DNA of 32,000 bases from Candidatus Heimdallarchaeota archaeon B3_Heim. GTDB lineage: Archaea; Asgardarchaeota; Heimdallarchaeia; Hodarchaeales; Hodarchaeaceae. Under the pieces are notes generated by a model. It searched no databases, was not told the origin of the DNA, and saw nothing but the letters and a program-made list of their open reading frames with translations. This document shows, piece by piece, positions 21,499 through 23,113 of this stretch (position 1 is its first letter; the number at the start of each line of letters is the position of its first letter). Position numbers and translations under genes: made by a program. The stretch lies in assembly GCA_003144275.1 (NCBI GenBank), contig NJBF01000003.1, forward strand, positions 90,001-122,000, read 5' to 3'.

Positions 21499-22074
21499 TT
21501 ATCCTTTTTTCTTCTGCTGTGGAGAGGGAACCAGAATAAGGTCATATTCACGTGAACCTATTCCTTGAGAATAAGCAGCAGCTAATTGTGTTTCTGCAAT
21601 AATGGGTCGAGATACAGGATCAACAAATCGGCTATATAAACCCAATTTTTGATTTTCAGCTTCCAATGCTCGTTCATTCGGTTCAATTCGTCCACTTGGA
21701 GAATTCATTCCAGTTTCCGCAGGTGACATGGGTAGTCCCCGAGCTTTAGTGACAAGATCCACACTTGCTTGATCTATAGCAATTGGATCTTCAGAATACA
21801 AGATGCCCTGGTCTGGAACGAGAAGATGTCCACCTGCAGACATACAATCACAATGGCTTGTGATATCAATTGCGATGTTGAAATATCTTAATCTCTCCTT
21901 TCCAGTCCCTTTTACTACTCCTCCAGCATTATCCATCATTCTTTCTACTTGTTCCACACTGGGAACCCGGCGTCTTAATGCAAAAACTCGTTCTTTTTCC
22001 ATATCCTTTCCGTGATGACATTTATCAAAACACATGATCATTTTTGTCCGACAAAGCGAGATTACTCGTATTCG
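21499..22074 (-). pseudogene. 5'-truncated DUF362 (4Fe-4S) protein, C-terminal half only
   Basis: ERM...GVVK, NIAIDITSHCDC and VPDQGILYSEDPIAIDQASVDLV match the DUF362 C-terminal region. A residual C..CFDKC ferredoxin motif remains. In-frame TAG at 22077-22075, and no N-terminal DUF362 domain upstream. Confidence 0.7.
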
Positions 22075-22165
22075 CTAACCTCTCCCTCTCTCTTACATTC
22101 ATAAAAAGCCTCCCTCCATAACCTCTTCCAAGCGAGGTGATGAAAAGAAAAATTCCTAACTTCTT

Positions 22166-22380
22166 GGGTCTTATTCACTTGTAACTACGTGAGACGAGTT
22201 ACCCGTCAAAGGCAAGAGAAGAATGACCCTTTAGACGTGAGAGGTATTAGCGCTGGGGATATCAGCAGTAAGGATGCTTCAAGTAGTCCCAATGAATAGT
22301 AACCCTTTTAGTGGTGCTAATCTGCTGGATAGCGGATGTGTGACTCATCCTGTCCAGAACTCTTTTCAAGAGTTGTCTGA
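22166..22380 (+). ncRNA. Candidate structured non-coding RNA, family unassigned (partial omega-RNA/HEARO resemblance)
   Basis: At least seven abutting helices read by eye. Five G-U pairs favour the + strand. About 45% GC by hand count (97/215) in otherwise AT-rich DNA. No ORF of 60 aa or more. Confidence 0.6.
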
Positions 22381-22403
22381 CAAATCTAGTCATGAACCAA
22401 AGC

Positions 22404-22411
22404 TATAAAAA
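22404..22411 (+). promoter_or_regulatory. TATA box for the bactofilin-like gene
   Basis: TATAAAAA 34-41 bp upstream of ATG 22445, preceded by CCAAAGC. Confidence 0.45.
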
Positions 22412-22444
22412 TAGTAATGTAAGAGAATTACATAATCATTTTTC

Positions 22445-23113
22445 ATGGTGAAATTACTAATGAGATTCGGTCCAACTTCTTTTTCTAGTGATACAGAACT
22501 TACTAAACCCTTAACCTCTTTCGGCCCACTAGTTGCTAAAGGTAATCTTTATGCTTCGGAGATAAAAACTAATGGTCCTTGTTCGATAGGAGACAATTTA
22601 GAGATAGATTTATCGCTAAAGGTGAATGGTCCTCTAGTTGTAAAAGGATCCTTAACCTGTCACAAAGAGGCGGCTGCCAAAGTTAATGGCCCTGTAAACA
22701 TCAATAATGGCATCATTGGTGGAAAAATCAAAATAAACGGCCCATTGAAAGCACGGTATGTAGAAGTCAATAATTTCAAGGTGAATGGACCATTAACCGT
22801 TGAGGAAGACATTATAGCTGAAGAAAATATTATTATTGGAGTAGGACGGTCAAGCAAAGGACGTGAAGGTCAATCTGTGTCAGTAGGAGGAGTTATTGCA
22901 GCGCCAGTAATTCGGATCACCAATTATTCTTCTATGTTTTCAGCTGCTAAAATCATTAAAAAAGTAATAGGATTAAAGGATAACTTTGAAAGAGTATTAA
23001 TTCTTAAAGATCTAAAATTTAAAGCTGAAAAATTAGAGTTAGAGGGAATCGAATTAGAAAATTGTGACACAACTGAAGTTGGAGAAATTATTCAGATTCA
23101 TTCTAAAAAATAA
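22445..23113 (+). CDS. Bactofilin-like / polymer-forming cytoskeletal beta-helix protein
   Basis: Seven (F/N)GP repeats, with GP at residues 9, 27, 44, 62, 82, 99 and 115 (16-20 aa period), and alternating beta-strand hydrophobics. Confidence 0.65.
   Translation: MVKLLMRFGPTSFSSDTELTKPLTSFGPLVAKGNLYASEIKTNGPCSIGDNLEIDLSLKVNGPLVVKGSLTCHKEAAAKVNGPVNINNGIIGGKIKINGPLKARYVEVNNFKVNGPLTVEEDIIAEENIIIGVGRSSKGREGQSVSVGGVIAAPVIRITNYSSMFSAAKIIKKVIGLKDNFERVLILKDLKFKAEKLELEGIELENCDTTEVGEIIQIHSKK

Follow-up and report, generated by a model that had tools for sequence, protein, structure and literature searches.

In transposons that encode TnpB, the omegaRNA (reRNA) is located at the 3'-end of tnpB and at the right end of the element, an architecture that is well established (PMC10691335, PMC10055086). 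Members of the IS1341 group of IS200/IS605 elements and their reRNA (e.g. ISDra2) combine a single TnpB with OrfB_IS605 and TNB domains and D-E-D motifs with an RNA module overlapping the 3'-end of the open reading frame (ORF), and they insert beside a fixed short motif without duplication. The PATEs of Haloquadratum and Geobacillus (PMC3119063, PMC10055086) offer no room for a protein-coding gene, carry palindromes close to their termini, cause no target duplication, have boundaries in common with IS1341-type (TnpB-only) elements and originate by internal deletion. Derivation from IS1341-type elements was described for the haloarchaeal PATEs (PMC3119063), and according to Meers et al. PATEs often encode omegaRNAs (PMC10055086). 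Standalone omegaRNAs of OMEGA/TnpB systems, as far as the work of Altae-Tran et al. (2021) is covered in PMC10691335, are mobilised multi-copy scaffolds between transposon ends without a nuclease gene. Effector-encoding copies reside in the same genome, and the guide would be the flank beyond the right end. Such mobilised standalone omegaRNAs function in trans with their effectors (PMC10691335).

The locus described here shares the structural properties among these with one or the other group. It is located in a 32,000-nt stretch of the genome of Candidatus Heimdallarchaeota archaeon B3_Heim (the window). In an earlier note, made from the letters alone, positions 22166-22380 had been regarded as a highly structured, independently transcribed ncRNA and as the best candidate for an undescribed system in this window. 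Instead, these positions form the inner and right-hand part of a mobile, TnpB-derived mini-element of 362 bp, which is a known type of element and not a new RNA system. With good confidence, we interpret window positions 22033-22394 as a standalone omegaRNA on a PATE-like non-autonomous mini-transposon, which has its own promoter and would be served by TnpB in trans.

In some respects the mini-element departs from the described systems. Unlike the standalone omegaRNAs cited above, it occurs in an Asgard archaeon and still has the complete tnpB promoter together with a relic from the middle of the gene; trans function is a prediction here. In contrast to the PATEs, its palindromes are very short with 11 nt, and at either end 7-8 nt separate them from CATG, so that the ends have the look of inverted repeats; the target is CATG. 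In contrast to the IS1341 group, no Y1 TnpA partner was found, the RNA has no relative in Rfam, and there is an extra conserved block in the RuvC-I coding region.

The repeat unit and its parent TnpB element

BLAST comparison with the genome of origin placed the stretch 22166-22380 inside a 362-bp repeat extending from CATG to CATG (window 22033-22394). The 3.95-Mb assembly contains at least 19 full-length copies with 67-99% identity in the BLAST search. At least 5 copies share 98-99% identity with the one in the window; the remaining ones constitute subfamilies at 67-79%. Out of 21 genomes of the same genus that were searched, 4 contained full copies and 4 further ones partial matches, and none of 39 genomes of other genera contained the repeat. 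Among the GTDB species genomes scanned, an exact 24-nt core of the right end was confined to MAGs labelled Candidatus Hodarchaeota or Heimdallarchaeota. The copies occur in unrelated contexts and in both orientations. The features of the window copy and its surroundings are as follows.

21499-22032, minus strand: 3' part of a DUF362-family gene; left flank, stops abruptly at the element
22033-22036, plus strand: CATG, left boundary; target motif and likely TAM, present in uninterrupted sites
22037-22077, plus strand: left end (LE), common to the 1.4-kb TnpB elements L021-L024
22044-22054, plus strand: 11-nt subterminal palindrome TTGTCCGACAA, part of LE
22098-22107, plus strand: TATA-like box TTCATAAAAA, retained tnpB promoter, presumably active and directed rightward
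22134-22143, plus strand: GAGGTGATGA, near-invariant relic of the tnpB translation start; probable region of the transcript 5'-end
22166-22229, plus strand: 5' structured domain, contains the first three helices of the earlier note
22175-22225, plus strand: core of the 5' domain, relic of the tnpB RuvC-I coding stretch LVTTSDGLLVKG; most conserved part of the mini-element
22230-22279, plus strand: variable linker, in which small remnants of the zinc-finger coding sequence of tnpB persist; least conserved part of the 34-copy alignment; helices of the earlier note that involve it are not family-wide
22280-22394, plus strand: omegaRNA 3' module together with the right end (RE); homologous to the terminal ~115 nt of the TnpB element
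22280-22290, plus strand: CAAGTAGTCCC, start of the omegaRNA 3' module
22297-22319, plus strand: covarying hairpin in the omegaRNA 3' module
22325-22357, plus strand: near-invariant hairpin in the omegaRNA 3' module
22358-22374, plus strand: covarying hairpin; contains the tnpB stop codon in the parent element
22373-22383, plus strand: palindrome TTGTCTGACAA of the right end
22391-22394, plus strand: terminal CATG, right boundary
22395-22414, plus strand: predicted guide portion, flanking DNA read through from RE, by analogy to the known architecture of TnpB omegaRNAs

The same end motifs were also found in pairs 1.4 kb apart, which enclose a single ORF of about 420 aa. Its product matches the Pfam families Cas12f1-like_TNB (2.4e-22) and OrfB_IS605 (4.5e-19) and aligns with solved TnpB and Cas12f structures, including the D, E and D motifs. 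A rearranged RuvC domain was considered and rejected: the glutamate (NIETL) aligns on the VEDL motif of the PDB entry 9yyg, a TnpB-like AI-designed RNA-guided nuclease, and hence this TnpB looks canonical. At least 6 intact close copies of the parent tnpB are present in the genome.

LE and RE are common to the mini-element and the four 1.4-kb TnpB elements, and both types of element are collinear, with LE, promoter, start relic, mid-gene relic, and 3'-end/RE following each other in the same order. Between LE and the CT-rich stretch with the TATA box, 44 nt are deleted relative to the parent. The column block "CTTAAAAGG" of the TATA region is kept in 34 of 34 copies with two A columns being invariant, and aligns on a TTATAA/TTAAAT box that precedes the start codon of tnpB by about 30 nt in four full-length elements. 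GAGGTGATGA aligns on GGAATGCG(C/T)AC, which represents the tnpB start codon, and is not followed by a conserved ORF. Positions 22162-22213 match the middle of tnpB (79-86% identity, BLAST), where a relic of about 50 nt of the LVTTSDGLLVKG coding stretch adjoins the RuvC-I aspartate. Positions 22280-22394 are 85% identical to L021 over their full length, and for the final ~73 nt two further full-length elements reach 96% and 90%. No such match to the scaffold of the parent is seen in the part of the mini-element that lies upstream of 22280. In the parent, the last hairpin carries the tnpB stop codon in its loop, at a distance of 27 nt from the element end, which is the usual position of an omegaRNA. 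From these alignments, the mini-element is considered to have arisen by internal deletions from a 1.4-kb TnpB-only element of the IS200/IS605 family (IS1341 group) in the same genome.

The suggestion that the stretch is a host gene for an ncRNA of undescribed kind, independent and confined to one locus, was understandable from its own TATA-like box, its compact set of helices and the lack of an Rfam match. This reading is refuted by about twenty copies with transposon ends and by the closest relative, whose orthologous site, with flanking DNA of 93% identity, lacks the element. Moreover, the parts of the supposed gene are collinear tnpB relics, and we consider this reading practically untenable. 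A small-protein gene was rejected as well, because a start codon and a conserved frame are lacking: the ORFs within the 362-bp element comprise only 30-44 aa and are not retained in other subfamilies.

Several contigs of the assembly stop inside copies of the repeat (C50:1-160, C31:78230-78356, C41:10-127, C86:10-128, and C45:115-426), i.e. the family breaks the assembly. A derivative of about 150 bp (C57:96042-96190) is reduced to 97 nt from the left end plus 51 nt from the right end. Another copy (C88:109509-109868) is inserted at a CATG-like site in a tnpB gene of the same family in opposite orientation and is a satellite nested in its own helper.

Element ends, target site and mobilization

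Every copy has the 5'-end CATGATCA..TTGTC(C)GACAA and the 3'-end TTGTC(T)GACAA..TAGTCATG. The motif TTGTCNGACAA was found at both ends of nearly all copies, 7-8 nt inside each CATG. Apart from CATG and TTGTCNGACAA the two ends do not mirror each other, and the resemblance to inverted repeats results from the fact that both motifs are palindromic. In the flanks only CATG is conserved, preceded immediately by a mild A/C preference and A-richness, and the sequence past RE is different in each copy.

Three uninterrupted sites were available for comparison, each with one CAT(G/A/T) at the junction. These were the paralogous tnpB genes in case of the copy inserted in tnpB, the intact ortholog of the left-flank gene, and the orthologous intergenic site of the closest relative. 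At the latter site the element is absent, and homology of 93% begins exactly at the terminal CATG of the window copy. Direct repeats between left and right flanks were no longer than in shuffled pairings of the 38 copies compared. Hence, target-site duplications of 6-9 bp, being not beyond chance in these 38 copies, were rejected. The sites point to insertion at CATG without target duplication; a single CATG is equally compatible with a 4-bp duplication of CATG itself. A short invariant target, subterminal palindromes and the lack of a duplication correspond to the IS200/IS605 pattern, which makes CATG the likely TAM.

Alternatively, the copies may be classical MITEs mobilised by a DDE-type transposase, with true terminal inverted repeats and a target-site duplication of 4 bp (CATG), which would leave room for a working omegaRNA part. 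The mirrored-looking ends (CATGATCA..TTGTC.GACAA and its reverse complement), CATG at both boundaries and in a single copy at empty sites, and the failure to find either a Y1 or a serine TnpA are in line with such an origin, and TnpB linked to DDE transposons with symmetrical ends has been described (PMC10691335). On the other hand, direct repeats of palindromic motifs such as CATG and TTGTCNGACAA necessarily look inverted, the sequence between them does not match, and no duplication is seen outside CATG. Furthermore, the larger ORF-bearing pairs with the same end motifs have tnpB alone, and the solitary sites inspected are devoid of transposase-like ORFs. We therefore regard a DDE-type MITE as improbable and retain the interpretation as a PATE-like satellite of TnpB elements.

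No suitable mobilising enzyme emerged from the searches. Y1 TnpA (PF01797) was not found in the 94%-complete assembly. It is encoded in 2 out of 22 genomes of the genus, and the one match examined adjoins an unrelated TnpB without the end motifs described here. No IS607-type recombinase was found, the sole serine recombinase being a resolvase-type gene next to a reverse transcriptase, and no Cas1 was found as a possible mobilising enzyme. The larger end-motif pairs that carry an ORF contain tnpB alone, and no transposase-like ORF was detected in more widely spaced pairs or at the solitary end-motif sites inspected. Mobility without a working Y1 transposase was likewise seen for the Haloquadratum PATEs (PMC3119063). 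The resolvase-type gene is arranged tail to tail with a reverse-transcriptase-like ORF of 416 aa (L065; C2:5532-7731). This context looks like a retron or group II intron and seems unconnected with the mini-element.

To the left, the element coincides with the truncation of the DUF362-family gene. In the ORF predicted at 21499-22041 (minus strand), the first three codons (M-I-M, 22033-22041) come from LE. The C-terminal 176 residues remain, and the Pfam match covers only profile positions 147-200 of 200. Orthologs in three relatives comprise 425-445 aa, and where the gene is broken off in the window they read ATCATG|TGTTTTGAT. A search of the 94%-complete assembly for the 248 N-terminal residues that are lacking gave no match, which is only suggestive. 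The sequence on the right side of the element shows synteny with another contig of the closest relative. Together, the flanking sequences suggest a deletion or rearrangement between two element copies in direct orientation, which would explain the hybrid flanks.

To the right, the element ends 8 nt before the TATA box (22403-22413) of a bactofilin-like gene (22445-23113; weak Pfam match, E 0.0027). Domestication of the element as a promoter or 5' leader of this gene was taken into account, as the promoter of the element points to the gene and the right end is located 50 nt before its start codon. However, the gene keeps a TATA box of its own, as had been noted before, and shares it with a relative that lacks the element. 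Other copies of the element reside in unrelated contexts in both orientations. Such a domestication is very improbable.

RNA structure and transcription

All nine helix strings quoted in the earlier note were found at their positions, the TATA-like TTCATAAAAA was confirmed at 22098-22107, and the GC content, given as about 45%, is 0.435-0.445 over 22100-22399. The minimum free energy (MFE) fold of 22166-22380 as a single sequence recovers six of the named helices. These are GGGTC/GACCC, part of ATTC/GAAT, and GTAACT/AGTTAC on the left, and TTAGAC/GTCTGA, the CTGGATA+GGATG hairpin, and AACTCTT/AAGAGTT on the right. Folding energy itself gives no support to the description as highly structured. 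For 22166-22380 the z-score is -1.78 on the plus strand, with 9 out of 200 dinucleotide shuffles being as good, and -1.97 on the minus strand. For the likely transcript (22133-22394) it is -1.12, and for a sister copy -1.37. These values are unremarkable on both strands and for the longer transcript. The earlier note had named an unremarkable z-score together with a lack of homologs with compensatory changes and of a plus-strand transcript as refuting. By energy alone the proposal would fail; homologs with compensatory changes, however, do exist, and as a multi-copy repeat the feature far exceeds chance. Rfam families were not matched at gathering scores anywhere in the window, and a permissive search returned only a chance-level snoRNA match (15 bits at a threshold of 60).

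Conservation of the helices was determined by counting paired cells in an alignment of 34 related full-length copies. Only 32% of the cells are paired in the long-range closure TTAGAC/GTCTGA, 36% in GGAT/GTCC, and 67% in ATTAGCGCT/GGTGCTAAT. Hence, these helices are confined to the subfamily of the window copy, and of the nine helices present in the window three, including the closure of the multiloop, are not kept across related copies. GTAACT/AGTTAC and the CTGGATA/GGATG hairpin are near-invariant and therefore uninformative either way. Pairing in AACTCTT/AAGAGTT survives double changes at 5 out of 7 pairs in the 34 copies.

A consensus fold of the right two thirds of the 34 copies is 95% paired and includes 16 pairs with double changes, compared to 6.1 +/- 1.7 in column shuffles and 9-14 in slid-partner controls; these figures lean in favor of the consensus fold because it was derived from the same sequences. 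Less dependent on this derivation are the results for the hairpin 22297-22319 and for the rebuilt helix that closes the 5' domain. The sequence of the former varies freely among 48 mini- and full-length copies while its pairing is kept, with double changes at 6 out of 6 pairs; in the last hairpin 4-5 pairs show double changes in the same set. Pairing amounts to 97% in the helix closing the 5' domain, where 4 out of 6 pairs show compensatory changes, and the two most divergent subfamilies rebuild this helix from CUUG/CAAG to CUCG/CGAG or CUUUG/CGAAG. The two best-conserved hairpins are beyond support by covariation since they hardly vary. The excess of G-U over A-C cells (126 vs. 31) fits folding of the plus strand. 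The covarying hairpin next to RE could equally act as a single-stranded DNA hairpin in transposition.

In the near-invariant hairpin, the loop GUGACU (22340-22345) is complementary to the terminal AGUCAU (22388-22393), and RNAalifold on the 48-copy alignment favors this pairing. This is a candidate pseudoknot next to the guide, which is beyond the reach of covariation because both sides hardly vary. A pairing GUCAGAC/GUCUGAC between the mid-gene block and the palindrome of the right end was rejected, as it does not covary and is broken in the C8 and window copies.

RNA sequencing data comprised a 151-nt contig from a poly(A) RNA-seq metatranscriptome, which spans 22191-22341 with three differences, carries no strand or end information, and may be DNA carry-over. 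Two runs labelled as metatranscriptomic WGS probably represent DNA. The summed contig depth of the best DNA run amounts to ~1000-1350 on two bins of the 5' domain and one bin of the central hairpin, in comparison to ~4 in the unique flanks. Thus, the 5' domain and the central hairpin are widely shared cores.

The structural data are also relevant to the question whether the mini-element is an inert relic, i.e. a mobile deletion remnant with hairpins acting as DNA only and without a functional RNA. Ordinary folding z-scores are consistent with this view, the RNA-library support consists of one unstranded 151-nt contig, and the best-covarying hairpin adjoins the right end, where IS200/IS605 transposases recognize DNA hairpins. 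In contrast, the promoter block and the start relic are kept in all subfamilies, and compensatory changes maintain the 5' domain. A second covarying hairpin is situated 75-98 nt from the end, past the typical end-recognition site, and covaries in full-length elements too. Moreover, functional standalone omegaRNAs are known elsewhere (PMC10691335). An inert relic is therefore rather unlikely, and a standalone omegaRNA remains the favored interpretation. Of the proposed independently transcribed ncRNA, an own promoter and an RNA from the plus strand are probably correct, but a single-copy host gene is not.

Proposed function and the conserved RuvC-I block

In this interpretation, the mini-element retains the parts that act in cis, namely each end with its subterminal palindrome, the promoter of tnpB and, proximal to the right end, a guide-RNA scaffold. 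Transcription, TnpB loading, use of the guide and mode of transposition may be envisaged as follows. The transcript would start about 25 nt past the TATA box, near 22130, proceed through the 5' domain and the omegaRNA module, and extend beyond 22394 into the flank. The transposon would thus carry a compact guide-RNA gene consisting of a promoter, a scaffold of ~265 nt, and a guide from the flank (22395-22414), in which the sequence past the right end would provide 16-20 nt of guide. The intact copies, of which the genome has at least 6, would supply the TnpB that binds the RNA of the mini-element in trans. This TnpB would cleave element-free alleles that have CATG and the guide-matching flank, and repair would restore the element. 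Movement itself would consist of insertion next to CATG without target duplication by a separate transposase.

The most conserved part of the mini-element is subject to constraint in the parent gene as well. A 42-nt core (L021:1326-1371 in a full-length element, C61:11725-11770 in the genome; window counterpart 22175-22225) is 95-100% identical in six tnpB genes with only about 67-90% protein identity, and is absent from more distant TnpB genes of the same genome. Constraint on synonymous sites was expressed as the ratio of identical codons to identical residues in nine tnpB genes averaging 69% protein identity. This codon-identity fraction peaks at residues 209-232 (0.70-0.86) and in the overlap with the omegaRNA (0.69-0.86), above a background of 0.3-0.55. 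In one tnpB gene, GACGG/UCGUC is replaced by GAUGG/UCAUC in a compensatory manner. It may tentatively be speculated that the 5' domain (22166-22229) is more than debris and represents a second functional nucleic-acid element of the TnpB family. Conceivable roles are an additional domain of the omegaRNA, a site of regulation or processing, or a site in cis for a transposase that is neither of the Y1 nor of the serine type. If the last were true, this transposase would be the mover of TnpB elements in Hodarchaeota-like Asgard archaea.

The start relic GAGGTGATGA resembles a Shine-Dalgarno sequence followed by ATG and is near-invariant in all subfamilies despite the lack of a downstream ORF. Archaeal C/D box sRNAs of about 50-70 nt are characterized by box C (RUGAUGA), box D (CUGA), a terminal stem, and internal C'/D' boxes. 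A C/D box sRNA or K-turn was rejected for the window copy, where GUGAUGA (22137-22143) and CUGA (22377-22380) are ~235 nt apart with non-complementary flanks and no terminal stem. CUGA at this position is part of the right-end palindrome, and we judge the likeness of GAGGTGATGA and CUGA to boxes C and D to be a coincidence.

A false lead is removed by this study, since what had been the best candidate for an undescribed system is part of a transposon. Our data predict a CATG-type TAM and a compact unit of promoter plus scaffold, which is potentially a small genome-editing system. Furthermore, they document that Hodarchaeota-like Asgard archaea, which attract wide interest in evolutionary studies, harbor a TnpB/omegaRNA family accompanied by guide-only satellites. 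Copies with 98-99% identity, an element at the truncation point of a gene, and contigs ending in copies indicate that this family has been active recently.
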